Shown here: positions 2,402-45,909 of the stretch, one piece after another | How positions within the stretch are numbered: the first letter of the stretch is position 1 | Layout of the letters: every line of letters begins with the position of its first letter | NCBI GenBank assembly: GCA_036630325.1 | Contig: CP142737.1 | Location: forward strand, 372,001-436,000 | DNA: 64,000 nucleotides | Reading direction: 5' to 3' | Origin: Vairimorpha necatrix | Lineage: Eukaryota | The notes under the pieces: generated by a model | What the model saw: the letters and a program-made list of their open reading frames with translations, nothing else | Database searches by the model: none | What the model was told of the DNA's origin: nothing | Made by a program: the position numbers and the translations under genes

Positions 2402-2441
2402 ATTATTTTTGTTAGAGTTACAACAGCAATAATTTAATTAC

Positions 2442-5363: not shown

Positions 5364-6002
5364 AGTACATGGACGTTTGTAACCCGGATTGAAAAAATGA
5401 AACCGCTTTGAAAATTTATAAAAAGGGAAAAAGATGTCAAAAAAAGACTTGGTAATTTCTTTAAGAAAATAAAAGATGAAGATTTATAGGTTTGTATTAG
5501 TTCTTTTATAGGACCAGAGAGACATTAAAAGGTACTCATTGAGCTGTCCTGGTTTGTTCCATGTCTAGGCCACATATTTTCTTTGAAAGAAACCAAAATC
5601 TCTCAATCTGTATGGTATTGTTTCTCAGGATCGTTAAAGTTTACGAAATTTATGGCGCAATTTACACTCCTATGCTCAATCCCAGTAATTCGTATAATTC
5701 GGCATCATATGCTATCATTGAAAATGATCCCAATAGAACTCTGTTACATATTGTATCCCATCAAGGAGAATAGCCGCATTTCTACTAGTCACAAGACAAG
5801 TAAGGCCACGGCGGTTATGCATTATTCAATTCTTTTAAATAACTTTAATTTATTCCTATGGTCAAAAACACTCTAATTTTAGCTAATTTAGTTCTTACCA
5901 ATTTTGATATTTTTTTATAGGGGTCTTTTCAAATTTCAAAGCGGGTTCGTTTTTCCAGAGCAGATTCATTTTTCCAAAGCAGGTTCCAAACGGCCATGTA
6001 CC
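5364..6002 (-). mobile_element. Merlin deletion derivative
   Basis: TIR (g)gtacatggacgtttg / caaacggccatgtacc; 8-bp TSD atacgaac/ataagaac; degenerate transposase C-terminal remnant (EHRSVN..NFVN). Same family as 20850-21502. Confidence 0.75.
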
Positions 6003-6528
6003 ATAAGAACTCATTTTTACATAAAATAACGAGAGTTATGTACCAGATCGTATTGTTTCATAAAAAACACTATCTAACTTTAATAACAAACTAACTACGA
6101 AATTTGCTCATCAGTCAATTAAGAAATGAAACAGTCAATTTTATATTCAGTAGAAATTAAACTTAACTTTTTAAAAATAACTCTTTTAGTGATTTATCTG
6201 TAACTATTGGATTTAATACAATAAAGTAGTACATTAAAATAAACATACAAGTAAATGATAGCATAATGAGTCAAATAGCATGTTGTGAACTCAAATATTC
6301 CGCGTTAAGATCAATACAAAGGTTTTATGTTAAAAAATTGGAAAGTTTTGTAGTAACAATATCTACTAAAAAGCTAGATGACTCTAATTACCGAAGGTTC
6401 CGACTTGCAAGATCCACCCCAGAACTCGAATTTACGATTTTTTTAAATAAGAATTTTTATACTATTAAAAGAGATCCACCCCCGTAGGCAAATGCTAAAA
6501 ATTAATATAAAAAGAAACCCTTTGATAT

Positions 6529-15099: not shown

Positions 15100-16308
15100 G
15101 CTAGGGTTCGGTTTTCACTTATAAGAAATCTCTTTTTAATCAGATTATGAAAATAAATATATAAGATAATGAGATTTGATGAATCAATTTATAATTAATC
15201 TTAAATAGATATAGTACAGCTTTACCCGGTATCGCTCATGAGATTTTTCTCTTCACAGACTTTAGCTTCTGTGGAGTAATTTATGTTTTTTCGACTCCGA
15301 ATTTTCAGCTTCATTCATCTTTGCCAACACCACTTCTTTAACAGCCGCCATATTCGCAAGTGTGCTTATTGCTCTAGCCACTTCTTCTTCTCTGCATCCT
15401 CCTGATCGTATCCTCGTCGTCGTTCCTAAGAGAAGGACTCTAGAGTCTTCTTCTGCACAATAGATTGAATATATGCTTCCAGAGAAGGTGGATTTCCAGC
15501 TCCCTGATGTACTTTCTGTAATATTTGGTCACCACTCCATCCCATGTCATTACATAAGGAACTATTCTTGTCCGGGATTTATGTATTAGTCCCAGTTCAT
15601 TCGCAAGAAGGTCATATTTTCTTAGTTTTTCATTCTCAACTATAGTAAGTCGGTCCTGGTTGGTTATACCAACTTCAACTATCAAAATTTCTTTCTTCTT
15701 CTTGTCAAACACAAGAATATCTTGTTTATTATGGGTCCCCTTTATATTGGTTGATATTCTCGTATCTACTCTTATCTTCGCACAGTTATTTTACAAGATC
15801 TCTTGTACTGAAGGGCCTCGTATTTTCTTGCTCTCCTTAAACCCATATTTAATGCATAGTAAGAGAAGGATGCATCTAACTACCTCATTGTGTCTTTCAT
15901 ATAACAAAAAACAACATTAGATCACACAAGTTAGTTATATTATCCACGGTCTTCCTATGAGATCAACAATGGGGACATTGTCCCTCTTGTACAGAAAACA
16001 TTTCTATCCTGAAGAAAGCAGCAAATTGCTTCGGATATAGCCTGATTGTTCCATTACGCCAGGTAGAAGGGCCTATAATGCTTTCTATATTATTAATCCT
16101 AGCTTAAACAACTTTCCATGGTTTTAACATATGTTAATTTTGTTGTAAAGCGCTTCTTTCTAGAATTTTATCAGCACCTTCTGGGTTATACCTACTACAA
16201 ATCTATGCCTAACTCTAGAATACTCGTTAATAATAAACGTGAGATTGCTTTTCCGCTTTTACTTTAAGTATCGCTGCCTATCTTAGTAAGCTATTTTTAG
16301 ACGCATCT

Positions 16309-16348
<40 letters not shown>

Positions 16349-18690
16349 GAATATTTTCGCTTCTATCTTCGAACTTATGAGGCCTCTTCTAATTTAGGAT
16401 CTAGGAAGGTATAGTCTTTCCTTGCAGTCTGTATGTAGCTGGAGCTTACACTTAATACGTACCTGTCAGTTATCAAAATCGAGACTTTTGAAATCCATTA
16501 AATCCAATTATAAAAGACCTACATGATAGTTTATTACTGATATAGCATGCTTATTATTAGATCAAATCATATTATTACCATTTAATTGTTTCTTGCACAG
16601 TTTTTCAACCCTCTGTAGCATCTCATTTCTTACTTTTTCAAAAGCCTCTCTTTTGACAGCACTAGAGGCATCTTCTGTTATTCCAAGGTATTTGTATTCT
16701 TGATGTTATTCTAGTATTATTGAATCTTTACTGCAATCATTAAGTTAGTTGCAGACTTAAGTCTGTTCATTTTTAAACCTACAGTCGGAAAAAACTTTTT
16801 AGTTTCCCCATTCATCAGTTTTAGAACGACATCGTTCTCTGCAAGGAGTCTCCGATCATCAATAAAAAAGGATGATACCTTACATAAATACTTTTGTAGA
16901 TCTGTATCCCTAATTTTTGGTAAATTGAATTAAGTTTCCTGCTCAACGGGCCCATATTTTGCAAACAAAAGCGGCGAAGATGAATTGCCTTGTAATATGC
17001 CTTTTTCGATCTTTTATTTATTTTCGTTTTCAATCCTGATTTTATCTCAATGTGCCAACTATTAACCGTGACTTCGGAGAAATTACTTATTCGCCGAGGG
17101 AGATTTAATTTGCTAAGACACTTTAATAGATAAGAATGGTTTGACGGAGTCGTAGTCTTCCTTTACATCCATCCACATATCTTCAGCTTGTTTTTATGTT
17201 CCTAATTGACTGCTATATTAATCATAGCTTGTTCTTTTGCTCCTTGGACTTGCTAATTGTCCCTAGTTGGTTCTCTGCTAGTAGCCCCCTACTTTCTATA
17301 ATTAGCTACATTACTTTTGTAGTGCATTTCGTTGTAAGCTTGTAGAGGTTCGACATACAGGCAATAGGGCTGAAGTCATTTCCACTGTGGGGGTACCTTT
17401 GGGTATTAAATAAGTAATCCCCTTGTAGAACCAAGCTTCGGGTTCTTTCCCATCCAGGCATACTTCCTTAACAATCTTGTAAAGGAATGGGTGTATAGCT
17501 TCACCCTTCTTAATAAAGAAATTGAAGATTTTATCACAACCTGCAGCCTTCCAATTTGGTAAATATTAAATAATATCTACAAATTCTTGCAAGGTTGGGG
17601 AAGTGATCTGATATTGGCTATCAGGAATGTATTCTAGAAGATACTCCTCGAAACTATTGCAGTCTTCGGATTGCTCTTTCTTATTCCACATGGTAGACCA
17701 GAATGAACTAATATCTTCTTTGCTTACATCATGATTAACCTCATTGGCACACTTGAGTTTTCTATAGAAATTGCTTCTAAATAGCTCAAAGTTTCGATTT
17801 TCACGCCTATACTCTCTGCGTCGGTCTGCGACCTCTAGCTTCCTTGAGTATATGGCTTTCCTCTCGTTGAGTATAGCATAGCTTCAGAAGTATCTCGGTG
17901 TTAACATGCAAGCATGTTGAGTTCCCGTATCACCTTCTTGACTTCACGCTTTTCCTCATTGAGAGTTTATCAAAAGCCCGGGCTTTTTTGATAAGCACTG
18001 CCTTGTCTTCGATCTCAGTGTTCTTTTTCAAGATACTTTATTTCCAAGACGAAGGTTTAGGCTTCTTACTGGCCATTTACTGATAGCAGATCTGTGCAGC
18101 TTGCAGTATCCTTGCCATCTCTGTCATGTTATGAGGGGGGTGGGATCTATCGTACTATCTACCGCCTTGACTGTAGCATCAAGTTTCAACAGATCAACTT
18201 CAAAGAAGAAATCTTCCTCGTTCTTTCTACCTGGTCCACACATGTATGGATACAACTAAGTTTCTCCAAGAACAATTTTTGTGCTTTTAGGAAGAGCTCG
18301 GTTTCAAAGAGACTATCCCCTTCTTTCGAATAAGTTTCGGTCTTTCTTTTTTTGGTAATATTCATTAAGAATTCCCGGGCCGTCATTTGTCTACCGCTAT
18401 TACTAGTGAGCGCTTTCTTCTCTTTGCCCTTGAATTCTAGTGAACTCATGTTAGACCCAAATTTTTCACAGAAGAACTCGGTAGCTTTATTCCATCCTAC
18501 TCTTGGCATTCTACCAAATCTATTTATGATTTATAAAAATACTTTTTGGATACTCTTTTTCATTCTTTCGGTACTCATAAATTGATTAGACACACTAGTG
18601 TGTTCTGGCACCTGTTATTATAATTCCGTGTCTACTTTTCCCCTTTTGCTTCGAGACTTGTTTTGTAGTTGTTTCCTCTTCGTCTTTACC
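15100..18690 (-). mobile_element. Non-LTR retrotransposon with restriction-like endonuclease (R4/NeSL-type), decayed; ends approximate
   Basis: RT remnants and RLE motif EILIVEVGITNQ..EKLRKYDLLA; colinear with the copy at 52720-56330; many stops and frameshifts. Confidence 0.9.
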
Positions 18691-20849: not shown

Positions 20850-21502
20850 GGTACATGACCGTTTGGAACCCGCTGTGGGAAAATGAACCCGCTTTAAGAA
20901 AATAAAACCCTCCTCTAATTTTAAAGGACCCCTCTTTAAAAAAATGGCAAAATTCGCAAAATTAAAGTTTGTTGATTCTGATGAGGTTTTTAGTGATGAA
21001 ATGTATTTATACATGGAATACAAAGTAAGTTTATTTTGGAAACATTTGATGCTGAATCAGCATGCGCCTTGCTCGTTTCTGTAACTAGTAGAATGCTGCC
21101 TTTTCCTTGAGGTAATACAAGATAATGTATAACCTATTTCTATTATGATCTCTAATCAATTGGTAGCATATGATGCCACATTAGACAAGCAAAGGAATGG
21201 AGCACAATACTATGAACCACTTTATCAATGCGGCAACCCCTTGTGATTTTGAGTCACAATACCAAATAATTTAGTTGGTTTTAGCCCATTTCTATAAGAG
21301 ATATTCGATCTAGATATAAACAAAGAAGAACACTATGAGTACCTTTTACAGTCCCACTGGGCTTTCCAAATTCCCAAAAATCACGGATAAATTGTCTTCT
21401 GTCACTATTTAAAATAAATTATCAAGTCCCTTTTTTATAATTTTTTTATTTTTTCCCTGTTTTTTTGAATTTTTCAAAGCGGGTTCCAAACGGTCATGTA
21501 CC
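20850..21502 (+). mobile_element. Merlin deletion derivative
   Basis: TIR ggtacatgaccgtttggaacccgct / agcgggttccaaacggtcatgtacc; interior homologous to 5364-6002 in opposite orientation; no TSD seen. Confidence 0.75.
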
Positions 21503-22030
21503 ATTAATTTTATTTTGTGTAAAGTTTTGTTCAAAGGATAAATTTACTGACAAGAATAAAGGAACTGTTGTTTATCATGGTCAGTTCTTATTTCAACGGC
21601 AATCATAGTTATCTATGCGGAGCAGTAAATCCTAATCTTGAACACATTATTGTAAATCATTCATTAAATTTATCAATGAAATGGATTCTACACTAATAAC
21701 ATTTTTAATTTTTGGTCTAGTATGAAATCGAAATGATTATACAACGCGGAATAAAGAGTTTATCAATTCATAGCTCATAGATAACACTTTAAAAAATCTT
21801 AAAATCATGTAAGTTGAATTAGGAAATGGATGTTTACTATTGATTTTATTAAATTTAACTTTATTTTTTTTTGCTGCTCCGTTTTTATAGAATCGTAAAA
21901 CTGAGAAGCACTACAATCTCTAGATTTTTTTGTATGTTTTTTCATTTTGTGTCCTCGAGAGGCTTTTGATACATGATATCAAATTTGCACTCTTTCTTTA
22001 TATAATTGTAAATTTTATTAAATTCATAAG

Positions 22031-22824
22031 AGGTGTCCTTAGCCCAGTGGTAGAAGGCGATGCTTTCAACATGCAATGGCTGGATTCTATTCCCAGAGCC
22101 ACCAAAATTTTTTCTTTTTTCTATGATTCAGTTTGAACAACTTAGATGATGAAAATATCCAAGATAATCATTAAGTTGATTCAATGAAACTTGTGTGTAT
22201 CAAGCCAATATTGGATTAACATCTAGTGTAGAAACGCACCCTAAGGCCGAAAAAACAGTATCACACTTATGGGGACTTAAAGATACATAAAAGTATTTTA
22301 ATGGGTACGCCTAGTTGAATCCAAAGCTGTTGCACTCAAGAGTGGGGTCTTAAAGCTAACTAAGAGACTAGACGAAGTAGGGCAATAGAAGGTCTCGTGG
22401 ACCCTATCCTACAAGATTCTGTAACACGGTTGCCGAAATTAGTAGGAGACTGGTGGTCAACGCAGCCCATTAAAAAATGCCGTGCTGGTTATGTGATCGT
22501 GTAAGGAGCCGTGTGTGCAATACAGGTGATTGTAGGGACCTTTGAGTTAGTACGATGATGTCTCTCCTCGGGTTATAGATAACAATCTCCGTTAAGTATA
22601 TCCGCTGTGAGATCACTTAGGACGCGATATGAGGTATAAATGGAAAGTGTTCCCCTGGAGCTAAAGTATAATGGATACGGCAAAGCTTGTTGTTCGTAAG
22701 AAGATGGGGTAGTTTTAATGAATAAGAATCTCGCAGTACTAATTGGATTAGGATCACACTTAAATCCCCCTGGCCCCTATGTGAGGGTTCTCCCAGCCTC
22801 TTACTTCCAAAGGAAGAAAAATTT
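22031..22824 (+). mobile_element. tRNA-headed SINE-like element with long non-coding core (copy A)
   Basis: tRNA-like head 22032-22104 (A box TAGCCCAGTGG, B-box-like GGATTCTATTCC, ends ACCA); 10-bp TSD AATTCATAAG (22021-22030 / 22825-22834); colinear with the reverse complement of 58230-58994. Confidence 0.75.
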
Positions 22825-23854
22825 AATTCATAAGTTTATAATTTTGTACAAATTCTCTTAAAATATTTATATAATATATTACAATCTAAAAATTTTTAGA
22901 GAAATACATGGCGATTTTTTTTTCAATGCAAAATACAAAAGACTTCGATTATACCACATACGAAAGATATACATATTAAAAGGACATTAATAATTTTATG
23001 AAGACTAAATCCGTAATAAGACGTGTTTTTGTTATTGTCAATGCAGGTTGCACGAGAACACATTATAATAGTCTTTGATTAACCCAAAGAGAATAAATAA
23101 AAGACTACGTGTTTCTTGTGAAAAATATTAAATCGGGTTTATCATTATACTAAAATACAATAATTGTATTGTGTTTGTAAAAACTATGTGTCTTTTAAAC
23201 CTATGATAAAATTGAGAATATCAATTTTCCGTATAATTTCAATCTTTGGTTTCTTATATTCTATTATTAGTTTCTCGCTGTTTCTGATAACATGTCAACA
23301 AATTATTTTTAAAAAAAATTAATCTTCTCAAATGTTTTCAGATATTTGAGTATATATTTAAAGCTTTCCCTTATCGTTCGAGGACAAAATTTCTGATTAT
23401 TTAATTTTTTTTTAATAGAAACGAATATTTAATTGTTTTAATTGCAAATTTTTTAAAAAATATGACGTTGAAATTATATTTAAATAAAAATTAATAGCTT
23501 GTTGTAAAGATTTTTAAATATATTAGGTAAATTTTATAAAGTTTTGTTTTCAATATTAATATAATTGTTCAGGAAAATAAATAATAATAAAAGATTGCAA
23601 AAAACATTCTTACCTACAAAACTAGTCGAAAGTTGCTCTGTGAAATTTTTTTTAAATTTTGATTATTGTGGTGCGTTTTTCATACTACAAAAGCTAGAAA
23701 TTTTCTGAATTAAATGTAGGATATAATAGTTAGCGCAATATTTTATTTTTATCCGGTATTTTACTTTACTATGAATTTTTTTAATTAATACTGTATATAT
23801 TATAAAACAAAAAAAAAGATAAAATTTGGTTTTTGCTTCATAATAAATTTTTTA

Positions 23855-24556: not shown

Positions 24557-24625
24557 CCTGGGAGGATAAAAAAATAATTTTTAAGTTTAGTTTTCAAGCA
24601 CAGTATCATGGCTAAAGAGAACTTA

Positions 24626-25427
24626 CAGCCCCCGCATTTGAGGCGCTACGATTTTTTTTTTCGAACCCCAAAAATGAAGTGTAAAAAAAGGAGGAGCAAA
24701 GAAGAGACAAAAATTACTAAGCACTTATTACATTAAAAACAATAAATAAATATATGATTTTATACAAAAATTAATTTTAAATTTAGTTATAATAATCATT
24801 TGAAGTATTGTGTCTTTTTCACCTTTCTTATTTTTTAGAATTGGGGACAAAAACGCTCCCTCTGAGGGTGTTCACTTTATTATTTTGAACCCCAAAAACG
24901 AAGTGCAAAATAAAGGAGAAGCAATCATTAGTACTCAAATTACTTGCATCTTCAAACAGTAAAAATACCAAATAAATATATATTCTTATACGAAATTTAA
25001 TTTAAAAAAAGAATATAACCATAAAACTATAAAATTCTAAATAACTTAACATATTTAATTAAATTTTTTGATTTAACAATCTGTATAGATCGTTGAACAT
25101 TTATTTAAATTTTCTTATATAACTAATATTTATAATTTTAATTGTTGGTTTATTTTTAAAGTAGATTTTCTTCAAAAATCTACTTTCATAATAAACCAAC
25201 AATTAAAAAAAATTGAAAAAATAAGAAGGGCGGAAAAAGACACAATACTCTAAGAGATTATTATAACTAAGTCTAAAATTAATTTTTGTATAAAATCATA
25301 TATTTATTTATTGTTTTTAATGTAATAAGTGCTTAGTAATTTTTGTCTCTTCTTTGCTCCTCCTTTTTTTACACTTCATTTTTGGGGTTCGAAAAAAAAA
25401 ATCGTAGCGCCTCAAATGCGGGGGCTG
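24626..25427. mobile_element. MITE/foldback with ~210-bp near-perfect TIRs (Tc1/mariner-like TA|CAG...CTG|TA)
   Basis: 24626-~24835 is the reverse complement of ~25215-25427; no ORF. Confidence 0.8.
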
Positions 25428-27650
25428 TAAGTATCCCAGCTCCCAGTATCATTAATAGATAATTATCTAAAAAAATGTTTTTTTCATCATACGTGTTGTG
25501 GTCAGAATAATTACCGAAAAACATAAGTTTATTTAATTAATCAATTTATAGTAAATATCAGATGATATTTACTATATCAGAGATTGACATGCTATACTCA
25601 ACACTCTTCCTCCTTTCAAAAAAAACATTTTCTCACGTTACTTAGGTTCAAAGTAATTATCCTTCCATCTGTTAGCTTGATGTCAACAGATCCAAACCTC
25701 TTAGCTATAATTGTTCCACTAAAATTATAATCTGCTGCTAATTTATGTTCTTTACTGACTGGGTGATGATAAAGTATATTATCTCCAACTTTAATTTCTT
25801 CTCTAGTTTTACTTCTTGTAGGTTTGCAGTAACTTGTTTTATATTGAATTATGTGCTGTTTTTGTTGTTTTGACATTTTCTTCTTCGACTACATTTCCCG
25901 CGGTGAACAGTTTATTCCTCGATGAAATGAATCCAGATATCCTTCCAACGGTTTCTTAATGCATTGCACCCAGTCAATCCTCCCGAAATTTGACACCTTT
26001 TTTAACTTTTCCACAAATGTTCTGTTGAATCTCTCTACTAACCCTGTAGTTGTAGGTGTATATGGTGCCCCCAGTCTCCATTCAATTTTATGTATCGTTG
26101 CAAAATTTTTCATGCTCTGGTTCACGAACTCTTTTCCATTATCAGATATAACAACCTTTGGTGCGCCCATTTTTTTAATAGTTTCTTCGAGTCCCCCACT
26201 CGTTTCCATTGCATCCTTAGTCCGCAATAGTATTACATTCGCTACCTTCGAGAAATTATCGATTATGGTTAACAAATATCTATATCCTTTTTGGCTTTGC
26301 GGTAGAGGCCCTAATATGTCAATTTCCCATTTTCGTTTAATTTATCTGCTCTAACCGGAATGATGCTCTTCTTGATGTAATATGACCCCATCTGTTGACA
26401 CTTAAGGCAATTTTGTATTGTCTTTATAACTTCCTTTTGTAGACCTTTTTTTTTTCCTTAAGGCGTACATCATTGCTTTTCTTGATCCATGTGCTAACCG
26501 TTCGTGTGTCCATTTCACAAGTTTCAGGACTTCACTTTGTTCTTTTATAACTTTGATGCTCTGCGTTTCCCCCATCATTCGACTTAACGAATCGCTTGGA
26601 TTATTCTGTCCTTTAATATGTTCGATCTCTATATCATATTCCTGTAGATAGAGCGCCATCTTGCGAACTTTGTTTTCATGTTTGTACTCTTGAATAGAAA
26701 TTTTATCGCACTATGATCTGTTCTTAGCAGAAATTTCTTTCCAATTAAATAATGTCTGAAATGCTCAATTGCTTTGATTACTGCTAATAATTCTTTTTCT
26801 GTCGTTGAATATTTTTTTTCTGCCTTAGAATGCACTTTAGAATAATAACATAAGATTTTTTTTTCTCCTCTCTGTATCTGTGAAAGTATTGCCCCCGAAC
26901 CAAGATCTGATGCATCTGTAGTAAGAATAAATTTTTCATTAAGATCGGGCATTCCGAGTACTCACGTCCTTCCAATATTATCTTTTAGCGATTCGATAGC
27001 TTTAATATATTTGTCTTCGTTACTAATTCTAATCCAATCTACTTCCGAATTCTTTTTTATTAATCCGTAAAGGTATGTAGTTTCTTTCGATAAATTTTTT
27101 ATAAACTTACTACAATAGTTAATCGTCCCTAAAAAAGATTCTAATTCCTTTCTGTTTTGGGGAATTTTAGTTCTTTAATCGCTTTATTTTTTCTGAATCA
27201 ATTCTAATCCCTCTATGTTCTACTACGTGTCCAAGTATTTGGATTTGCTTCTGTTCATATTAACATTTGCTATCGTAAAGCTTTAATCCTGCCTTATTAA
27301 TTAATTTTAACACTTTTCTAACGTGATCCCTATGTTCTTCCAAAGTCCTACTATATATAATAATGTCATCCATATACGCCATGGTGGACTTCCCGAGGTA
27401 CGGCTTTAATATTCTATTCATCATCCTCTGAAACGTCGCTGGAGCATTCACTAGACCAAATGGCATGTACATAAATTCATAAAGTTATCACCCGCATGAA
27501 AAAGCTGTTTTTTCTATGTCGTTTTCATTCATTTTTATCTGGTGATATCCTGATAATGCATCTAATTTAGTAAAAAAGATTGATCCGTGCAGAGAGTCTA
27601 ATATCTCGTCAACCCGAGGCATGGGGTACGAGTAAAAAAAAAATAAAAAT

Positions 27651-30600
27651 TGTTGGAACAAAACATGGGTTTATTTTTATAAAATTATTTAAAAGAACAG
27701 ATGTCAAATATATCAACTCGATTATATATTTGACATTGACATTGATATATATTCCTACACTACTTCCCCTTTAAAAGTTTTACATGATTTCGATTCGCTG
27801 TAATCGTTCTTCCGTCGTCAAGTAAAACACTATACGATTTAAACCTTTTATCCAAGACCGTTCCTTTATCTTGCCATTTTGGTTCCAGTTTCCCTCCTTG
27901 GGGCAAAATTAGTCTGTACCATACCCTGTCACCTACCTTTATTTCTTCCAATTGGGGCGCACCCGTTTTCTCATGTGTTGCATACTCCCCTCTGTATCGT
28001 TCTAAATTCTCCTTCGCTCTAGTCCTAAAGTCTGTTCTATCCATTCTAATATTAATTCCTTCCTGCAGATCCATATGATTAAGAACTAATCCTTGGTGCA
28101 ATTCTATGGGCGCACAGCCTATGGCACGGTGATAGGACTGCATATAGGCTTTATTTACTTTTTTTGCACATTTGGCCCAATCGAACTTGCCAAATTCCGT
28201 GATCTTCCTCAGTTTAATTCCTATTGTTCTGTTAAATCTCTCTATTAATCCTGTGGTGGTCGGACTGTATGGTGATCCGTATTTCCAAGTAAACTGTTTC
28301 TCTTTTGCATAATCCTCACAGATTCGATTTTTAAACTCTCGTCCATTATCTGTTAAAATTGCCTTCGGAATTCCATATTTCTTTATGATGTATCTGTCCA
28401 CTAAATGCACTATTGTGTTCATGTCTTTTGTATGGATCGGGATAATCTCCCCCGTTTTTGAGAAATGATCTACCATTGTCAGTAGATACCTGTACCCGTC
28501 CTCACTCTCCTTGAATGGTCCTACTATGTCAATTTCCCAAATCTCACCAATGTTGTTTGCCACCAATGGTACAATATCTTTGAATTGTTTTTGTTCTCTT
28601 TCCTGTTGGCAGATTTCGCAGTTCTCTACAAACTGATCTATATCTTTGTTAATTTCCTTCCATTCATATTTACGTCTCATGTTATATTTCATATTTTTCT
28701 TTGAGCCATGGCCCAACATATCGTGGTAAAATCTGACCAGTTCTAGTCCCCTTTCCCTGTTTATAACTTTCCTTTCTTCAGCAGTGCTTACTGTTTCAAT
28801 TTTCTTCATCTCTATTTTGAAGTCTCTACTTAAATGGTCTACATGGTTTGAGGGTCCCGCAATATACTCAATTTCAAAATCATATTCCTGAAGGAGGAGC
28901 GACCATCTCGCTAACCTTGCCTTAATATTCCTTGACTTAAAAAGATACTTTAAAGCCTGATGGTCCGTTCTTAAGGTAAACTTTCCCAACAGTAGATATT
29001 CTCTGAAGTGTTGAAATGCTTTGACTACCGCCAACAACTCCTGTTCTGTTGTAGAATAATTTTTTTCCGCTTTCGTGTGCAAAGAACTAAAGTATGCTAC
29101 CATTTTTTCCTCTCCTTCTATTACCTGGGATAGCATGGCTCCACTTCCTTCATTTGACGCGTCCGTCGTCAAAATGAATTTATCTCTCGTATTTGGGATA
29201 GTCAATAATGTCGCTTTATTCACAGCTGCCTTTAACGCTTCTATGGCTTCGATAAACTGCCTGTTTTCTGATGCCCTTTTCCAAAATTTGATTTCCTCTT
29301 CCTTTTTCAACTTAATGATCCTATACAATGGGCTTACTATCTTATGACTGTCTTTTATAAATTTCGAACAGTAATTATATAGCCCCAACAATGATTGCAA
29401 TTTCTTTTTGTTTTTTGGAATCGGCAATTCCTCAATACTCTTTATCCTTTCTGTGTCGATCCTAACTCCTTCCTTCGAGATCACATGCCCCAAGATTTTA
29501 AGTTCTTTCTTATTAAATTCACACTTTTTCTCATTCAGCTTTACTCCAGCATTTACCAACTTCTCCATAACCAGCCTAACATGCGCTTGATGTTCCTCGA
29601 ACGTTCTACTATAGACCAAGATATCATCCATATAAACAACCACAAATTTGTATAAAAACTCTCTCAGTATGTTATTCATTGCTCTCTGAAATGTGGCTGG
29701 CCCGTTTACTAGACCGAAAGGCATCTTTACAAATTCAAAAAGTCCTTCTCTGCATGCAAAGGCAGTCTTCTCAATATCCTTTGGAGCCATATTGATCTGG
29801 TGATATCCCGATTCTGCATCCATCTTAGTAAAATAACTTGCACCCTCTAGTGCATCAATAAACTCATCCACTCTAGGCATGGGGTATGCATCCTTAATCG
29901 TAATATCATTAAGCCGCCTGTAATCTATACACAATCTATATCCTCCATCTTTTTTTGGTACTACAATCACTGGACTTCGCCAAGCACTCTCACTTGGCCG
30001 TATCACCCCCAGCTCAAGGTATTCTTTTATTATTTTAGATGCCTCTTTTTCTTTCGTTCCGCCTAATTTATATAGCTGAGCCATGACTGGCTCACTATCT
30101 CCCGTGTTAATCCTATGATATCCAATTGCATTTCCTTTAAGGATTTGTCCCGACTCCATGTTGACCTTTCCATTTCCAAATCTTAGGTCAACTTCATATT
30201 TGTCCAATAATGTCCATCCTACTATGCACGGCATGGTGATGTCCCGTGTTACAATAAATTCGTCTTCAAATATGTATCCTTCTATTTTTATTTTCAGCAT
30301 CGTTTTCCCTATGATTCTTATCTGTGACCCGTTGGCCGCCCGTAATTGAAGATTATCTCTAGTCAATCTTGTTTTGTCTTCAAGGTGTTCCGGCCTAATC
30401 AAATTAACTTCTGCACCTGTATCTAATAATACCTTAAACGGTCGTTTACTGTTCTCAAGTGTAGCCAACTTAACAGTGGATCGATTACTTCTGCTATTTA
30501 ATAACCTATAATTAAAAATAAATTTATTCAAGTCCTCTTCTTCCACATCTATCTCATCATTCCCTAATGGTATACTAACCTCTCTAACTTGTTTTTTCAC

Positions 30601-31377
30601 CTTAGAGCTTTTCCTTAAACTGTTAAAACGACATTGAGAGACCACATGTCCTTGCTCGCTACAGATCAAACATCTAATTTTTGAATAGCTTAATTTTTTA
30701 CTATTAACTTTGTTTCTTATTGCTTCGACTTTAACTTCTTGACCGTATGAGGATGCTATCTGGTTTCGCTCGGTCTCTCTCGTATCCTTAATATTCTTTA
30801 ATGAATCATAGATGTATTTCCACGTAAGGCCCTCTTTGTTGTTAATAAGCACGATGTTAGCTAGATTATTCGGCAGACCATTCAATGTAAACGCTACCAG
30901 GACTTGTTCTGGTACATTTCCTTTCCTCGCTATGGCACCCATTCTGTCGAGATAGTTCAGAATAGATCCACCTGTATACTTCAATGCTGCAAGCTTTTCT
31001 AAACTAATCTTCAGAATCATATTACTGACAAATCTCTCCCTGAATCTATCTATTAGTTCACCCAAGTCTAGCCCTACTGGTTGGGCCATTATCCAATCTT
31101 TTGCTTCTTCCCTAAGAGACATCTTGAATGTAAGTAACAGCTTACCCTCGCTGTACTCATTCAACCTGCCCACTTCCATCAAGTCCTCTATGAACTGTTG
31201 TGGGTCGTCTTTCTCTTCATTTCTGAAGATGAGAAGAATATTTTTGTCGCTTGTCGCCAAATTGTTGGAACAAAACATGGGTTTATTTTTATAAAATTAT
31301 TTAAAAGAACAAATGTCAAATATATCAACTCGATTATATATTTGACATTGACATTGACATTGATATATATTCCTACA
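27651..31377 (-). mobile_element. Ty3/gypsy LTR retrotransposon 2, intact
   Basis: LTRs 27651-27759 and 31263-31377 differ by one substitution and one 6-bp repeat unit; TSD AAAAT; PBS TGGCGAC; PPT aaaggggaagtag. Confidence 0.97.
27760..31278 (-). CDS. Single-ORF Gag-Pol polyprotein
   Basis: CLIC..GH..C knuckle, LLDTGA protease, YMDD RT, TDAS RNase H, HHCC + DDE integrase; 1172 aa uninterrupted. Confidence 0.97.
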   Translation of the reverse strand: MFCSNNLATSDKNILLIFRNEEKDDPQQFIEDLMEVGRLNEYSEGKLLLTFKMSLREEAKDWIMAQPVGLDLGELIDRFRERFVSNMILKISLEKLAALKYTGGSILNYLDRMGAIARKGNVPEQVLVAFTLNGLPNNLANIVLINNKEGLTWKYIYDSLKNIKDTRETERNQIASSYGQEVKVEAIRNKVNSKKLSYSKIRCLICSEQGHVVSQCRFNSLRKSSKVKKQVREVSIPLGNDEIDVEEEDLNKFIFNYRLLNSRSNRSTVKLATLENSKRPFKVLLDTGAEVNLIRPEHLEDKTRLTRDNLQLRAANGSQIRIIGKTMLKIKIEGYIFEDEFIVTRDITMPCIVGWTLLDKYEVDLRFGNGKVNMESGQILKGNAIGYHRINTGDSEPVMAQLYKLGGTKEKEASKIIKEYLELGVIRPSESAWRSPVIVVPKKDGGYRLCIDYRRLNDITIKDAYPMPRVDEFIDALEGASYFTKMDAESGYHQINMAPKDIEKTAFACREGLFEFVKMPFGLVNGPATFQRAMNNILREFLYKFVVVYMDDILVYSRTFEEHQAHVRLVMEKLVNAGVKLNEKKCEFNKKELKILGHVISKEGVRIDTERIKSIEELPIPKNKKKLQSLLGLYNYCSKFIKDSHKIVSPLYRIIKLKKEEEIKFWKRASENRQFIEAIEALKAAVNKATLLTIPNTRDKFILTTDASNEGSGAMLSQVIEGEEKMVAYFSSLHTKAEKNYSTTEQELLAVVKAFQHFREYLLLGKFTLRTDHQALKYLFKSRNIKARLARWSLLLQEYDFEIEYIAGPSNHVDHLSRDFKIEMKKIETVSTAEERKVINRERGLELVRFYHDMLGHGSKKNMKYNMRRKYEWKEINKDIDQFVENCEICQQEREQKQFKDIVPLVANNIGEIWEIDIVGPFKESEDGYRYLLTMVDHFSKTGEIIPIHTKDMNTIVHLVDRYIIKKYGIPKAILTDNGREFKNRICEDYAKEKQFTWKYGSPYSPTTTGLIERFNRTIGIKLRKITEFGKFDWAKCAKKVNKAYMQSYHRAIGCAPIELHQGLVLNHMDLQEGINIRMDRTDFRTRAKENLERYRGEYATHEKTGAPQLEEIKVGDRVWYRLILPQGGKLEPKWQDKGTVLDKRFKSYSVLLDDGRTITANRNHVKLLKGK

Positions 31378-31859: not shown

Positions 31860-34104
31860 GGCATGGGGTACGAGTCTTTTATTGTTATTTCGTTTAGTCT
31901 TCTGTAGTTAACGCATAACCTGCAATCTCCGTTCTTTTTCTTTGCCAGTACCACTGGACTTCTCCATGGACTATGAGCCTCCCGTAAGACACCTTCTTTT
32001 AGATATTGTTTAACAATTTTCTTCGCTTCCTTTTCCGCTTCCGCCCCAAACCTATAACACGCGTTCGTATTGGAGGGAGATTTTGAGTGATAATCCTATG
32101 TTCTCCCAGATTTTCTTTTGCACACTCCTTTTGTGTCCATTCAATGCGACAGCCTGTTCCAAATTCAATTTTGACTTTATGTTTCTTAAGGAAACCGAGA
32201 CCAATGATCATATTTGAAGTTATTTCGTTAGTTACAACAAAATTTTCTTCGAAAACTCTTTCTCCGATCGTGAATTTTTGTCTTGTCATACCCAAAGTTC
32301 TTATTTCTGTACCGTTTGCAGAGATAAGGTTTCCTGTGTGTTCCAGTTTGAAATTCCTAACGTATTTTTCTTTAATTAAGTTTACGCATGCTCCTGAGTC
32401 GACTAGCGCTTGTACATGGAATTTTCCAATTTTAACTACTACGGTGAGGTCTTTATTTGAGGCATTACCTAAGGACCTAATAGCGTTGTAATAATTAAAA
32501 GTTTTGTTTTCATTACATTCATCCTCTTCTTTAATTTCCATTCCAACTTGTCTTACCTTCGTTTTACGCTGTTCCTTTTTTCTTTTTTCGCATTCTCTTT
32601 TAAATGTCCTTTTCTGCCACAATACCAACACTCACCATTGCCCTGCACTTTGCATATCTCCATCGTTTCTTCTTTGGCCTTTTGAGGTAATGTCGTATAC
32701 GTATTCGATCTATTACTACAATCGAGTCCTTCACAAGCATTATAGATATAGTTCCATGTAAGTTCAGACGGCGTATTCATCAATAAAATTCCTCCAATAT
32801 CATCAGGTAGTCCATTAAGTACGAATGCAATTAGGACATTATCCGGAAGTTTAGCTTTTATTGAAATTCTCCTCATTTGATCCAAGTATGATAAAAACGA
32901 TCCCGACTGGTATAAGCACCGTGCTAGATTTTTTATGTGTCCACAACTGCTTAATCTTCCTTTAAATCTTTTTAGAAATGCCTCACACAAGAATTCAAAT
33001 TGACAGCTCCATGGCACCGATTCCGCCCATATAGCTGCTTCCCCTGCTAAATTATCACAAAGGAAGAAAACCTTTCCCTCTTCTCCACAGTTTGTAATTA
33101 CTGCCCATCCCCTTATGTATGCCAAGAATGCATCAGGATCATCTTCTCTACTGTTCCTAAAGATTTTTTTGTTTGCGGTTGTCGCCAAACTGTTGTGGTC
33201 AGAATAATTACCGAAAAACATGGGTTTATTTATTTAATCAATTTATAGTAAATATCAGATGATATTTACTATATCAGAGATTGACATGCCATACTCAACA
33301 ATACGTACTACTTATTATAATAGCAAATATTTACAAGCTCTTAGGAGACTAGAAAGAGAAAAATAATATTTTGTTTTTTTAATTTTTATATTCCTGTCAA
33401 ATAAGTTGAAATCAAAGTTAATATAAATCTAAATCTGACTTAAATCTTTATACATAGTGTCAGGCTGCAGACATGCACTGACGATACGCCTTCCAATCAT
33501 ACAATGATCATTGATGCTGTCAAACATCTCGAAGTATTGTAAACAAACATTGGATATGCTTGACATACACAAACTAAAAGTAGGAAAAGTGCATGTCTCA
33601 TGAAGTACTACTAATTTAGTAGAACTTCGGTTTCTTGTTTGTTTGTTTACATCTCAAAGAGTTTGACAGTTAATCTAATTAACTATTTAAACGGAATTTA
33701 CCCCTAACCCACAATTCCGATGAGCAGAAAACAAGAGAACAATATAAATAAATATGTTAGTTTAGACTCGCCCTCTTCTACTTCGGATCAGGCTACATGC
33801 CGGATCACACATAGACAGAAAAATATATATAATATTCTGGCTAAAGTAAGCATTAGCTACAAAAAATCGATATAGGATTTTTTTGTTTTTTTTGCCCCAT
33901 TTTTTCAAAAATGAAGGAGAGAAAATGATGAGGAAGGAACAAAAATAAAAACTAGAATAAATATTTTTATAAAGCTTCAAACACTGGAGTTGTGGAGTTT
34001 CTTTGGATCATATATCTAAATAAATAAAGTTTAGCGCTATTTGATGATCTGTTTCTATTTGGTATAGAATGTTTTAGAGATCTCCAATTACTTTTTATGG
34101 TATA

Positions 34105-37100
34105 CTAGCGTATGCACACCCGTTCTGAGAACGGGTTGTTTGTGTTTGCATGGGTACATGTTTTAATTTTATCACATTATATTTATTCTTTAAAAAAATG
34201 GCATAGTTTTTGTACGCTCACGGCGCATTTTATCATCTTTTATCTCATCCTTATTGGAAGAAAAATGGCATAGTGCTTGTACGCTCACGGCGCATTTCTT
34301 CATCTCTTGGCTCTTATGGGCCAATTAGTTCACGTAGAACTACATTTTTAGTATTGCTTCCTCTTGTCCCCAACTTGACTCTCAAGTTTTCACTCTTCTT
34401 CACTCTTGACAAAGCTACGTATAATTGACCATGAGAAAATACATCCTCAGGCAAATACACTCCCACTTTGTCAAAAGACTGTCCCTGTGCTTTATGTATT
34501 GTCATCGCATGTGACAATACCACAGGAAACTGTCTTCTTTTAAGTACAAACGGAAGAAGAGTGTCACTTGGCATCATGTCTATCTTTGGTATAACAGCAA
34601 GGGTGCCCCTTCCCCTTCCTGTTATTATTTCACCTAAGATGTAATTATCTTTAAGACCTTTTATCTTCAATCTGGTCCCATTTAATAATCCATTCTTAGG
34701 ATCAATATTGCGTAACAACATCACTATTGCCCCTATCTTCAATACTAACTTATGTGGAGGAAGTCCTGATGGCTGTTGCATGTTCAAGAACTCAAGAGGA
34801 AATCTCAGTTGTTCTTCGATATCCTCTGATTCTATAGCATCAGAACTCACATATACCCTCGAAGATCCATTAAGTAGGTTTAACACTTTGGCATTCAATT
34901 CATTTGCATGTTCATTTTTGCTCGTTAAGATAATCTTATCAAACAAAGAATCATCACCTGCTTCAATTTTGATTGTTCCAAAAATGCTATCGACTATGTC
35001 CCCTTCTTCAAGATATTCTTTGGGTATCTCCACACATCCTTTACTATCTCTAGTACGCCCCTCGCCTATATCTAACAACCACTTATTAAACTCCAATTGA
35101 TTATATGATCTCATGTTCGTTTCAAGCTTTAGTACACAGACATGTACCCAAAGTCTTGAACTAATTAATGAGTTCTCGATGATATCATTTGGAGTACCCT
35201 TCATTACAATGGTTGATGTCTGTCTAAAGTCACCACCCAACAATAGAGTTTTCCCTCCAAAGACATCATCATTGTCACAGAGTCTTTTAAGCACCTCATC
35301 TATTGCGTTCAATGCATGTTTTGACATCATCGAAACTTCATCTATTAGCAATAAAGAGGCCTTTATTATTCTCTCTGCTTCTGGAGTATTTTGCTTTAGT
35401 CTAGATACGCTGGTCTCTGTCAAAGGAACAGGAAGTTTCATACAACTATGCATTGTTCTTCCATCTTTTAATAGATCTGCAGCAATTCCTGTAGTGGCCA
35501 TCTGTATTGAAGATTTTTTATTCTTATTTAGATATTCAATCAGGACATTGTATAGATATGTCTTTCCTGATCCAGCTGGTCCATCTAAAAAGAATAAATT
35601 GCCTTTTTCATCTATACTATCTGTTATTGTATTAAATGCATTTCTCTGTTTTTCGTTCAAAGAGGATATCATCTGATCTAGATCATGTTCAATGCCAGAG
35701 ACGGCTCTTTCATTCTTGATATAGTTAATCGGCTCATCTAAACCCAGAGCATTTAAGCTCCATCCATGAGCATTAACTATATCTTTTAATCTACTTAATA
35801 TTTCGTCTCTACTATTCTGATCTAGATCTTCAGACATATCTCCAAGATACTTCTCAAAGAGTTCTTTGGTATTTTTAGGCTTATTGAAAGCACAAATATA
35901 TCCAAACAATGCTCTTATTATTGATGGGGACTCGGTCGATACGGCCTCATCCAAAGCCCTTTCCCATTCTTTATCATCTTGAAGAAGTCCTCTTTCTTCC
36001 ACCGCCTCTGCGAAAGAACTGTAAACTACACCATTTACAGTTCTCAAATCCTCATATGATTTAGCCCCCTTTACATTGATCAATAGAACTCTGAGGCTAA
36101 ATCTTTCCTTCTCTATTGGAGATACAGAATAAAGTCTAGTAATTATCTTACTATACTTATTCTTTCTCCTAATCCATTCTCCCCTTTTATATGTATAGTG
36201 ATAGGGTATCTCACTATACGAAAATCGATGTGCTCCTTCATCAACTTCATTCAATTTGAAGTAGGCTAAAAGAGGAGTCTGTCTAAGATCGGACAATCTA
36301 ACGGCTTCCTCTTCTCTGCCTTCTTCGAAAGTGATCAATTGTTCTTGTGGAAGATGCACAGGAAGTCTATGGATCTTATGAGATCTTCCATGCATCTTGT
36401 ATTCCATTAATCTCCAGGTAGCCTCTGGTGCTGAGACATATCTGGAATTCACAAAATGATCAATTTCATTGTTGTCAGTTATTCTCATTTCAGCACAATC
36501 AAATCCCTTGTAAATATACTTGAAAATATACTTTACTGACTTGATAGAAGTACAAACTTCTACATTGATATGACAATTGTATTTTTCAAGTAGATAAGCA
36601 TTATAAGGGACCACGTTAGCTTTAGTAACAACGTTGCCCCTTACATTGTACTCGGCCCCTCTAGATCGTCTGTACTCAGGATATCCGTCTTTATTGATCC
36701 TTGTTTCAGTATTATGTTCCTTAGGATATTCCTTAGTGCAGAGACCATTTTCCATACATGGACTTGTCAAGTTACTTAGTCCACATGGTCCATGAATCAT
36801 ATGTTTTGTTACACAGGTGTGTAACACTTCATTTTCCATAGGCGATGGTATCTCTGCGCTTACAAACTTATCTATCATATTTTCATCCCGAATCTTGTCC
36901 TTTAACATTATCAATATGTGAGCATGGGGAAGTCCACGTTTTTGGAACTCAATAGAATAGACATGAGCCACAACTTCCCCAAATACTCTTCCTGACAAAA
37001 TCTCCCCCATCATGCTTTTTAATTTCAAGTTGAAGACCTTTGCTACCAAATCAGGCCTATCAACTGCAGTTTGTCCCTCAAATAGATTCTCCTTTATCTC

Positions 37101-39240
37101 CTTCCAATTTGGATTGCAAGTCATAGTAATGAAAAGATCGGGCTTGCCGAAATTTCTTACGACAGACATTGCATCGTGGTATCTTTCCCTCATATTTCTT
37201 GGAGATCCCTGGAAGCTTGATGGTAAAATTACAGGCTTAGCATTACTTTCTATTCCATTGTTCACATAATCTACTAAGCCTTTGTAAAGATCTACCCTCA
37301 ACTTCTTCTGATTTAACTTTATGAAGTTTAAGTTATTTGCTTCGACTTGTAGATATGAATCTACAATCCATTGTTGAAATAACTTTCCTCCATAGAGTAA
37401 AGGATTGAACTTATCTTTTCTTATAGATATTTGTGCTACTTTATATTGTAGTAAAGATATCTTCTGTGATTCCCCATGATAAGACTCAATCCTTAAATTT
37501 GCGTTCCATCCAGCTTCGCCATGTGGATAGAACAAAGTATACGTCATTGGATCTAAATGTGGACTTAAAATATCCAAATGTAAATTATCAGAACTAAGAC
37601 CCTTGCTATATACTTTAATGTCCCTTTCAAATGGTGGTTCTCCATTTGGATCAGTAAAAATCATTGCGATTTCACTTGTAGAGGGAGCATTATATCTTCT
37701 CTGATCTCTTTCTAAATTCTTATTAAAGACCATAGAAATGTCTTTAACTTCTTTTCCCATCTCCTTTTGCTCCTTTATTACTTCAGACATATTCTTGTAT
37801 GCATTGGAATATGGATTGGCAGATCTTATAAATCCATCTAATTTGCTCATGATATATATATCACAATTTCTATTAGATGGATTCATCATTCTTTGAACAT
37901 TTGCCATATCACTATCTACTACATATAATTGAGCATACTTCTTTGGTGCATTAGAGTCCATATTATTTACATTATAAGTGTTATGATACACTTGACCATG
38001 TATTTTAAATACATACGGTCCATTGGATACAGTTTCTATTTGAGCACCAAGAGAAGCAAAAGAAAGAGCAGCATTGTAGGATCTAATATTATCTCTGAAG
38101 TTTTTTGCATCTTTATTTTTTCCTATATATAAATTCTTAATGTCATCTGGGAAGTCTCTTGTTCTTTGTAATTTAACTTTCCCAAAATGACAGCAGCTTT
38201 TGTATAATCCATTGCTGCTTGCTTCTCCAGCAAAATGTAATGCACCACAAAAGGCACATTCTTCTTTCAGATCTCCACAATAATGTTCAGCATGGTTTCT
38301 GCTTGTGATTCTACATGCTAAATCTAATCTTTCCGTAAGAGCTTCTATTATTCTGTTATCTTTTAAGTCATCTAATTCTTTTTTGTTGTTTATTGGTTTG
38401 CTTGGTGTTTTGTTGTCGCTAGAGAAACTGAATATAGAATTCCTTTTTTTTGTTTCTCCAGCATTTGTTTTTTTATTTTTTTGATTATATACAGAGGTGT
38501 TGGCCTCATAGAAAATAACATTGTTATTTTTTGTATTACTACATATCTCCTGAAAGATAGTAACAGTTGCTTTGGGTTGTTTATTCAAATCGTTGTTTGC
38601 TTGATTTTTCATAAACATAATGAGGGGTAAAGAAAAAAAATTTATTTATAGTTTTTGAAATTCCATTTTGGGAAAGAAGAAAACAAAAATGAGACTATGA
38701 TTTTTTAATAAATAGCATTGATATTAGTCTAAATAAAAATTAATTGAGTTTGTTATTCAGTTGATAAATTTCTAATGTTTGTAAATCATCTTTTTAGTGT
38801 TTGTTTCTTGTTTTGATTTTTGATTTTTGATTTTCCATTTCTGGTAGGAAGAATTAAAAAGGAGCAAATGTGATTTTTAGAAGTTAAGTATTATTATTGA
38901 ATCAACATAGCAGTGGTAACGTTAATTCAGTAACAAATTTTAATCCAATTGAGTTAATTTCACACATTAGTAACAAATTTTTTCTACATTTTGTTTCATA
39001 TTGTTTTTGTTTTCATTCTCTAAAAGGAAGAAATTAAAAGGGAGAAAATCATATTTCTAAGCATTTCGAAAATGATTTATAAATAAAATGTAAATAACGT
39101 ATCTGGTCTAAAATTGTCTATAAAATACAGTGAAAGCATTTAATTTTGTTTTAAAACAAAAATTATATCATTTTAAATTTTCTCTTTTTTTGAGTTTTAG
39201 GGGTAAAAAATTAAATAAAATTCTTTTATATATATGATGA
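34105..39240 (-). mobile_element. Autonomous Helitron
   Basis: 5' TC end; 3' hairpin cccgttc-tca-gaacggg followed by CTAG at 34105; RepHel ORF. Confidence 0.95.
34314..38618 (-). CDS. Helitron Rep/PIF1-like helicase (RepHel)
   Basis: PDLFITMTCNP, EFQKRGLPHAHIL (HUH), KYIFKYIYKG (Y2), DGPAGSGKT, GDFRQ, TIHKAQGQS, HGQLYVALSR; 1434 aa intact. Confidence 0.97.
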   Translation of the reverse strand: MFMKNQANNDLNKQPKATVTIFQEICSNTKNNNVIFYEANTSVYNQKNKKTNAGETKKRNSIFSFSSDNKTPSKPINNKKELDDLKDNRIIEALTERLDLACRITSRNHAEHYCGDLKEECAFCGALHFAGEASSNGLYKSCCHFGKVKLQRTRDFPDDIKNLYIGKNKDAKNFRDNIRSYNAALSFASLGAQIETVSNGPYVFKIHGQVYHNTYNVNNMDSNAPKKYAQLYVVDSDMANVQRMMNPSNRNCDIYIMSKLDGFIRSANPYSNAYKNMSEVIKEQKEMGKEVKDISMVFNKNLERDQRRYNAPSTSEIAMIFTDPNGEPPFERDIKVYSKGLSSDNLHLDILSPHLDPMTYTLFYPHGEAGWNANLRIESYHGESQKISLLQYKVAQISIRKDKFNPLLYGGKLFQQWIVDSYLQVEANNLNFIKLNQKKLRVDLYKGLVDYVNNGIESNAKPVILPSSFQGSPRNMRERYHDAMSVVRNFGKPDLFITMTCNPNWKEIKENLFEGQTAVDRPDLVAKVFNLKLKSMMGEILSGRVFGEVVAHVYSIEFQKRGLPHAHILIMLKDKIRDENMIDKFVSAEIPSPMENEVLHTCVTKHMIHGPCGLSNLTSPCMENGLCTKEYPKEHNTETRINKDGYPEYRRSRGAEYNVRGNVVTKANVVPYNAYLLEKYNCHINVEVCTSIKSVKYIFKYIYKGFDCAEMRITDNNEIDHFVNSRYVSAPEATWRLMEYKMHGRSHKIHRLPVHLPQEQLITFEEGREEEAVRLSDLRQTPLLAYFKLNEVDEGAHRFSYSEIPYHYTYKRGEWIRRKNKYSKIITRLYSVSPIEKERFSLRVLLINVKGAKSYEDLRTVNGVVYSSFAEAVEERGLLQDDKEWERALDEAVSTESPSIIRALFGYICAFNKPKNTKELFEKYLGDMSEDLDQNSRDEILSRLKDIVNAHGWSLNALGLDEPINYIKNERAVSGIEHDLDQMISSLNEKQRNAFNTITDSIDEKGNLFFLDGPAGSGKTYLYNVLIEYLNKNKKSSIQMATTGIAADLLKDGRTMHSCMKLPVPLTETSVSRLKQNTPEAERIIKASLLLIDEVSMMSKHALNAIDEVLKRLCDNDDVFGGKTLLLGGDFRQTSTIVMKGTPNDIIENSLISSRLWVHVCVLKLETNMRSYNQLEFNKWLLDIGEGRTRDSKGCVEIPKEYLEEGDIVDSIFGTIKIEAGDDSLFDKIILTSKNEHANELNAKVLNLLNGSSRVYVSSDAIESEDIEEQLRFPLEFLNMQQPSGLPPHKLVLKIGAIVMLLRNIDPKNGLLNGTRLKIKGLKDNYILGEIITGRGRGTLAVIPKIDMMPSDTLLPFVLKRRQFPVVLSHAMTIHKAQGQSFDKVGVYLPEDVFSHGQLYVALSRVKKSENLRVKLGTRGSNTKNVVLRELIGP

Positions 39241-40274
39241 CTAGCGTATGCTTTCCCGTTTTGAAAACGGGATTGATATATTGTTCATAGCATTTATTTC
39301 TACTTTATTTTTTGAGTTTCCATTTTGGGAAAAATAAATTTGAAAAGGAAAAAACATGAATTTACAAAATACTTTTTAGTAACATATAAGGAGTAAAGTT
39401 GAGCTAAAAACATTTAATAATTATAATGAGATAATTTTGGAAACTTCTAAGCTCAATTTTTGACACTTATATTTTACTTATTTTTTGGTTAATGTTTTTG
39501 TGAATTTTTTCTAGAAGGGTTAAATAAATTCTAAAAAACGATTCTGACGATATTTTGGAACTAAGTTTTACGAAAATAATAATCAAAATAAAAATGCATT
39601 TACACATAATATACACACTTACAATATTTATATCGAAACATTAGATGTAAATTTGATATTTTTAATACACAATAAGCTGTAATAAGAAGTTTAAAGTTTA
39701 CAAATTCATAAAAAAGAGGGGTAAAAAATTAAATAAAATTCTTTTATATATATGACTAGCGTATGTTTTCCCGTTTTGAAAACGGGATTTGAATGTTTAG
39801 TTTTTTAATATGTATTTTTCCTTTTAATGTTGTTAAGTTTCCATTTTGGGATGAATTTGAAAAGGAGGAAACATGATTTTGGAAAATACTTTTTAGTAAC
39901 ATATAAGGAGTAGAGTTGGGCTAAAAAGATTTAATCATTATAATGAGATAATTTTGAGAACTTTTAAGCTCAATTTTTGACATTTTTATTCAATTTTTTT
40001 TGGTTAATGTTTTTTTGAATTTTTTCTAGAAGGGTTAAATAAATTCTAAAAAACGATTCTGACGATATTTTGGAACTGAGTTTTACAAAAATAATAATTA
40101 AATCAAAAAAAGTATTAACTAATAACATACACACTTAGAATATTCATATTAAGGCAGTAAATCTATATTTGATATTACAATGATACAATAAGCTTTAATA
40201 AGAAGTTTGGATTTTTCAAAATCATAAAAAAGAGGGGTAAAAAATTAAATAAAATTCTTTTATATATATGATGA
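39241..40274 (-). mobile_element. Two tandem ~515-bp non-autonomous Helitrons (39241-39755, 39756-40274)
   Basis: Each unit has the TC-ATATATAAAAG 5' end, a cccgttt..aaacggg hairpin and a CTAG 3' end; direct CTAG|TC junctions. Confidence 0.9.
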
Positions 40275-45868: not shown

Positions 45869-45909
45869 TATTGTGTTCCATTTTTTCTTCAAAAATTCCA
45901 CATTATGCT

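Follow-up and report, generated by a model that had tools for sequence, protein, structure and literature searches.

A probable family of tRNA-derived, SINE-type retroposons of about 0.8 kb in the genome of the microsporidian Vairimorpha necatrix

The stretch of DNA analyzed here, called the window throughout, is 64,000 nt of Vairimorpha necatrix (GCA_036630325.1, contig CP142737.1, positions 372,001-436,000, forward strand), and all coordinates below count from its first letter. The window is AT-rich, with 25-39% GC per 2 kb. It encodes a microsporidian actin-like protein (Actin_micro, PF17003, E 2e-81) whose nearest named relative comes from Vairimorpha bombi and is 43% identical. The other ORFs include eIF-1A, Ty3/gypsy polyproteins and an intact Helitron. 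The Helitron ORF at 34314-38645 (-) is uninterrupted over 1443 aa and carries Helitron_like_N and a PIF1 helicase; judging by this reading frame, this microsporidian may have an active Helitron. The two Ty3/gypsy polyprotein ORFs, at 27760-31296 (-) and 46039-49797 (-), hold protease, RT, RNase H and integrase. The second has a 124-nt direct repeat at both of its ends (45910-46033 and 49641-49764) that is 100% identical, which suggests that this element is young. Fragments of integrase and gag/protease are found at 25889-26341, 31999-33233 and 44854-45381.

Repeats of several other kinds are present. A MITE-like element of about 650 bp lies at about 20850-21501 (+) and again at about 5365-6004 (-), bounded by terminal inverted repeats that each span about 24 bp (GGTACATGACCGTTTGGAACCCGC...), and the interiors of the two copies show a likeness of about 65%. 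Four units of 51-53 nt (CCGTTCGGACTGGACGCCGGGG...) form a tandem array at 2464-2685 that has inverted partners at 45670-45746, beside the second gypsy element, and several inverted matches link 2284-3308 with 44046-46027. The arms of a 222-nt inverted repeat (24621-24842 and 25211-25432) are 93% complementary and stand 368 nt apart. There is also a tandem duplication at 39334-40271 with a period of about 516 nt and 83-95% identity, and a 57-nt piece of it recurs in inverted orientation at 60244-60300.

This work will focus on two copies of a further element, one on each strand. Copy A occupies 22031-22824 (+) and consists of a head, a body and an A-rich tail. Copy B occupies 58230-58994 (-), and its 3' end is ambiguous inside an A run near 58233. 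Both are delimited by blastn, by alignment and by an nhmmer profile built from the two copies, and they put the length of the element at 765-794 nt. The original prediction, made from the letters of the window, was of two diverged homologous copies in these positions, and we agree with it: blastn aligns them over 757 columns at 73.05% identity (E 4e-103), and a MAFFT alignment of the elements alone has 550 identical columns among 800, or 72% of the 759 that are ungapped.

The conservation between the copies is uneven beyond what chance would give. All seven exact blocks quoted in the original prediction are real; each is present once per copy and nowhere else in the window. The alignment has three exact runs of at least 20 nt (23, 22 and 22), whereas permuting the match and mismatch columns 5000 times yields 0.12 such runs on average, and three were reached in 0/5000. 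The best-conserved part is central, at 22137-22672 (+), where identity per 50 columns is 0.56-0.86 and where exact blocks are found at 22213-22234, 22357-22379, 22444-22465, 22484-22495 and 22591-22605. The head (0.50-0.68 per 50 columns) and the tail (0.54-0.70) are the least conserved parts.

Neither blastn at word size 7 nor the two-copy nhmmer profile finds a further copy in the window, and neither finds any similarity of copies A and B to its other elements. Scans of viral, metagenome and prokaryote contig collections with the exact blocks found no related sequences; the sole match, L001, has only a 21-mer in common at 48% GC and was rejected as a chance match.

The core had been predicted to be non-coding on the strength of frame-breaking indels, and every measure we have applied bears this out. 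Every one of the 12 frames of the two copies is interrupted by 9-25 stops. The gap runs of the A/B alignment are not multiples of three in 15 of 17 cases, and the substitutions fall evenly on the three codon phases (71/71/67), so there is no codon periodicity. None of the eight small ORFs of the copies has a Pfam match at E up to 1. The stops, the gap lengths, the phase counts and the empty Pfam scan are also the grounds on which a decayed coding sequence was rejected.

Copy A begins with a tRNA-like head. At its pseudogene threshold ARAGORN folds 22032-22104 (+) into a 73-nt Leu(CAA)-like pseudo-tRNA cloverleaf, which is the only such match on either strand of the window and sits exactly at the 5' end of the copy; at default settings ARAGORN reports no tRNA in the window. 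The Rfam tRNA model matches over its full length (model positions 1-71) at 22033-22103 with 15.3 bits, below its gathering score of 29, and with an E of 5.2, a value obtained after multiplying by 4227 families. The head of copy B (58926-58994, -) is decayed. It draws no tRNA call from ARAGORN or Rfam and is recognizable only through its MAFFT alignment with the head of copy A, with which it has the same AGGTG start and the same CACC end.

The promoter boxes were scored against the textbook A-box and B-box consensus motifs. The A-box-like motif of copy A, TAGCCCAGTGG at 22040-22050 (+), has 0 mismatches. The B-box-like motif matches at 9/11 letters in both copies: in copy A it is degenerate (22083-22093, +), and in copy B (GGTTCGAATTT at 58935-58945, -) its 2 mismatches fall in the final two letters. 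The starts of the two copies coincide at one base, 1 nt before the tRNA-like 5' end.

Any argument for transcription by Pol III has to deal with the T runs. Two T6 runs that look like Pol III terminators stand right after the head of copy A, at 22108-22120 (+) (22108-22113 and 22115-22120, alignment columns 78-83 and 85-90). The original prediction gave these runs as a caveat, that they would stop Pol III. The runs are certainly there in copy A, but copy B has no T run of at least 4 in those columns. T runs of at least 4 are present in each copy and none is common to both. Since the T6 runs are private to a decayed copy, the caveat does not necessarily concern the family as a whole.

These same observations also bear on a different view of the head. 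The family could be a non-autonomous retroposon that is not driven by Pol III at all, with a head that, T runs included, is a relic of template switching between a pre-tRNA and a LINE or other RNA; its copies would then be made from Pol II or read-through transcripts. Copy A does have its head followed by AAAA and then T6, like a tRNA gene with its own terminator, the head at 50-68% identity is the least conserved part, and internal T runs are found in both copies. However, the T6 runs are missing from copy B, and a common start 1 nt before the tRNA-like 5' end is what an internal Pol III promoter is expected to produce. We regard a retroposon without Pol III as improbable.

The other end of the element carries the marks of retroposition. 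Copy A finishes in an A-rich tail, AAGGAAGAAAAA at 22810-22821 (+), and a homologous tail ends copy B. The 10-bp target-site duplication that had been claimed for copy A is confirmed: the exact repeat AATTCATAAG adjoins the element upstream at 22021-22030 and downstream at 22825-22834 (+), and a repeat of equal length turned up in 0.5% of 3000 random pairs of window flanks (P about 0.005). Copy B has a possible 8-bp duplication of low complexity, AAAACAAA, at 58995-59002 upstream and 58225-58232 downstream (-), with a repeat of equal length in 3.9% of random flank pairs.

Copies A and B lie in unrelated flanks. The window also holds a direct segmental duplication of about 3.4 kb (15172-18580 and 52787-56159, 86% identity, 37.6 kb apart) that includes ORFs without Pfam matches. 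It contains neither copy and stops short of both, and it offers no empty paralogous site.

In a window this rich in mobile elements, which include Ty3/gypsy, a Helitron and, 0.5 kb upstream of copy A, a MITE, it is reasonable to ask whether the copies belong to one of these classes instead. They could be a MITE derived from a DNA transposon, or a solo LTR or non-autonomous LTR element that carries a tRNA-like piece, and non-autonomous LTR elements with small-RNA-like sequences are reported (PMC10886601). The termini, read directly, are those of neither class. No terminal inverted repeat can be seen by eye when AGGTG... is set against ...GAAGAAAAA, nor do the ends read TG...CA. At 10 bp the duplication falls outside 2-6 bp, and there is the lack of similarity to the other elements of the window. 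A MITE or LTR identity strikes us as very hard to credit.

Two public sequencing runs from two studies, X1 and X2, hold the locus or its species and bear on the size of the family. Their contigs were placed, at a likeness of at least 80%, on a 2-kb stretch around copy A that includes the end of the MITE-like element, and 475 contigs of X1 and 198 of X2 found a place on it. The very high X1 depth at 21400-21533 is explained by the end of the MITE-like element at that place. In X1 the single-copy contig that spans the 5' junction of copy A (716 nt, 21476-22192, 5 differences) has a depth of 101.6, and the depth summed over 22137-22672 is 1,800-88,000. In X2 the core has a depth of 74-628, compared with about 3 for flank contigs. 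Dividing the summed depth of the core by that of single-copy flank contigs gives 125 to about 860, a ratio to be read with the caution that summed contig depth is not copy number and that the runs may contain other organisms. These depths point to a family size of the order of hundreds of copies. X1 is without cover beyond 22807 and X2 at 21668-22002, and nothing is drawn from either gap.

It is the central part, 22137-22672, that has the highest summed contig depth in both runs, and the depth over the head and tail is low. This drop might seem to call for a separate and commoner core element, but none is necessary. The head and tail are only 50-70% alike between copies A and B, so they are lost at the 80% threshold, and the threshold suffices as an explanation. 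The contigs also tell us something about how the family is built. In three X2 contigs the element gives way at precisely 22031 to sequence unrelated to it, consistent with a 5' end that is fixed. Contigs of other copies jump from 22237, where one block ends, to 22357, where the next begins, so the stretch between is replaced or missing in some members of the family. We also compared copies A and B with the family majority at 27 high-share positions, hand-picked from 40 of the 118 difference rows. At 19 of these positions the majority letter is the one found in copy B, so many of the A/B differences are private to copy A, as would be expected from decay.

The most ambitious claim in the original prediction was that the core is an ornate, conserved RNA structure. 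Searching the whole window with Rfam 15 at gathering thresholds gave 0 matches, whether to the families that had been named for checking (group I/II introns, RNase P/MRP, GOLLD/ROOL, IRES) or to any other. At E up to 10 the two copies yield only the weak tRNA match together with chance snoRNA-like and other hits. An origin of the body from rRNA, snRNA, 7SL, a ribozyme or an intron was rejected on the same ground, that there is no Rfam match.

Thermodynamics and covariation give the same answer. The minimum free energies of the two copies have z scores of +0.61 and -1.10 against dinucleotide shuffles, which is no excess of stability. The RNAalifold consensus has 147 pairs, 12 of them with two-sided changes, compared with 12.5±2.8 when the columns are shuffled 60 times with the conservation pattern preserved; its energy has a z of +0.84 against 60 column-shuffled alignments, and the structure conservation index is 0.39 compared with 0.43±0.04 in column shuffles. 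None of 19 sliding windows stands out (best z = -1.96), and columns 401-600, where conservation peaks, fold less well than their shuffles (z = +2.7).

Five helices had been put forward as pairings preserved despite substitution, and here the outcome is split. They are indeed complementary in both copies, in 50/52 cells. The compensation does not hold up: two-sided changes are found in 2 of 26 pairs, a level attained in 131 of 500 shuffles. The slid control is biased toward the quoted helices because these were chosen from the same two sequences. In addition, the family majority has a G at 22483 that breaks an A-U pair of the helix CACGGT/GCCGTG.

It is important to keep in mind that these structure tests rest on two sequences and have low power. 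From two sequences we recover neither a structured RNA of Rfam 15 nor a conserved structured RNA of a more general sort, and the ornate core is best described as unsupported rather than excluded. There is something to be said for the idea of a true structured non-coding RNA, with the family being either that RNA or a set of its retrocopies, the exact blocks its single-stranded or tertiary core and the variable stretches its peripheral helices. Large Rfam RNAs such as RNase P/MRP, group I/II introns, GOLLD/ROOL and IRES are likewise several hundred nt long and alternate conserved blocks with variable stretches. The strongly uneven conservation (three exact runs of at least 20 where 0.12 are expected), the joints from block to block at 22237 and 22357 in contigs of other copies, and the complementarity of the quoted helices all fit with it. 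But unlike those RNAs this family has no match in Rfam and no thermodynamic or covariation signal, it loses a pair of one quoted helix in the majority of its members, and it is dispersed and retroposed with target-site duplications. We consider a structured RNA of this kind quite improbable.

A related idea concerns the central domain. The central domain of about 540 nt could be kept by selection as a functional RNA module, which might capture the partner reverse transcriptase or might have been exapted by the parasite. The uneven conservation and the block-to-block joints, along with the low power of tests on two sequences, leave this compatible with what we see, and we rate it as unlikely. 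If it were true, we would be looking at a new microsporidia-specific SINE superfamily of the conserved-central-domain type, with the core as the unit on which selection acts, in place of the tRNA head or the tail.

We believe instead that this microsporidian genome carries a family of non-autonomous retroposons about 0.8 kb long that are SINE-type and tRNA-derived, and we would put the probability of this at roughly 0.78. The original prediction of a retroposing family agrees with what was found: dispersed copies, a tRNA-derived head with A and B boxes, a short and non-coding element, an A-rich tail and a target-site duplication (weak in copy B), and high repetition, in the form of the copies in the window and the contigs of the runs. 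On present evidence copies A and B are ordinary long SINEs of the fungal style and not a new kind of RNA or mobile element.

If this is right, the family would have spread in the following way. Source copies would be transcribed from an A/B-box promoter inside the Leu(CAA)-like head. The A-tailed RNA would then be copied into DNA at a nicked target by a non-LTR (LINE) reverse transcriptase of the same genome, acting by target-primed reverse transcription; target-site duplications of 8-13 bp, together with the A-rich tail, are what suggest this mode of copying to us. The partner would lie outside the window: among the 19 ORFs scanned, of the 28 listed at 120 aa or more, none is a non-LTR element. 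The two copies in the window arose from separate insertions; they are old, with a divergence of 27%, and are probably no longer active. In copy A the B box is damaged and T6 terminators follow the head; in copy B the A box is gone.

Several observations count against the SINE reading and should be stated openly. The tRNA score is below the gathering threshold, the head of copy B goes unrecognized and T runs of at least 4 are found in both copies. The pattern of conservation is also the wrong way around. In most SINEs it is the promoter and the end recognized by the LINE that are conserved, the reverse of copies A and B, where conservation is lowest in the head and tail. The slower change of the middle 540 nt most likely reflects either constraint on the source genes, of the sort seen in SINE families that keep a central domain, or a body derived from a LINE.

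Microsporidia are relatives of fungi, and the fungal literature is where we find the closest counterparts of this element. The passages on individual fungal elements in PMC5063351 list MgSINE (472 bp), mgsr1 (800 bp), Egr1 (700 bp), egh1/EGH24 (900 bp) and Foxy. As with these tRNA-derived SINEs, the element described here has an A/B-box head, a non-coding body, an A-rich 3' end, target-site duplications and a length in the range of 0.5-0.9 kb; the fungal families, as these passages describe them, likewise number tens to hundreds of copies (PMC5063351), and the likeness is one by description. The prediction that the element is far longer than typical SINEs holds against animal SINEs, but 0.8 kb is not exceptional beside the fungal SINEs covered there, because these span 472-900 bp (PMC5063351). 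Unlike the fungal SINEs, our family has a microsporidian host, and its head and tail are less conserved than its middle.

This last feature recalls another group of elements. The SINE superfamilies known for their central domains include CORE, V, Deu and Ceph, and the central domains known so far are much shorter than about 540 nt. Such superfamilies are defined by the conserved central domain (PMC4758252). Going by description, the likeness lies in a central part that is kept and a head and tail that vary. The difference is that known central domains are common to species or phyla, whereas the roughly 540 nt in question are conserved among copies in one organism, as sampled by two runs.

Microsporidia are known for their reduced genomes, and their repeats appear mostly in automatic tables with large 'unknown' fractions. 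The repeat table of Nosema bombycis, itself an automatic annotation, gives 0.18% SINE and also LINE Dong-R4 (PMC3614468), and the part of PMC13174016 that treats repeats gives Dong-R4-type LINEs for Microsporidia sp. MB. Going by the portions of these two papers devoted to repeats, Dong-R4-type LINEs are the main non-LTR elements in both organisms (PMC3614468, PMC13174016), and they are candidate partners for the SINE family. Such 'SINE' and 'LINE Dong-R4' rows are products of automatic annotation that come without a described element, which sets them apart from the copies presented here. The rows do indicate that both SINE-like repeats and plentiful non-LTR ones get picked up automatically in large microsporidian genomes. 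The SINE row in the table of PMC11585130 is zero for one Microsporidia sp. MB assembly, and the word SINE is absent from the main text of a survey of transposable elements in 47 genomes (PMC7313128). Searching the full text of articles found no paper that describes a microsporidian SINE. The family may already be catalogued.

We believe the value of the family lies in what it would offer to work on these parasites. An abundant, characterized, tRNA-headed retroposon of 0.8 kb would improve the annotation of repeats in microsporidian genomes. Its presence would also imply a non-LTR partner that is active, and strains could be typed by its insertions as markers.
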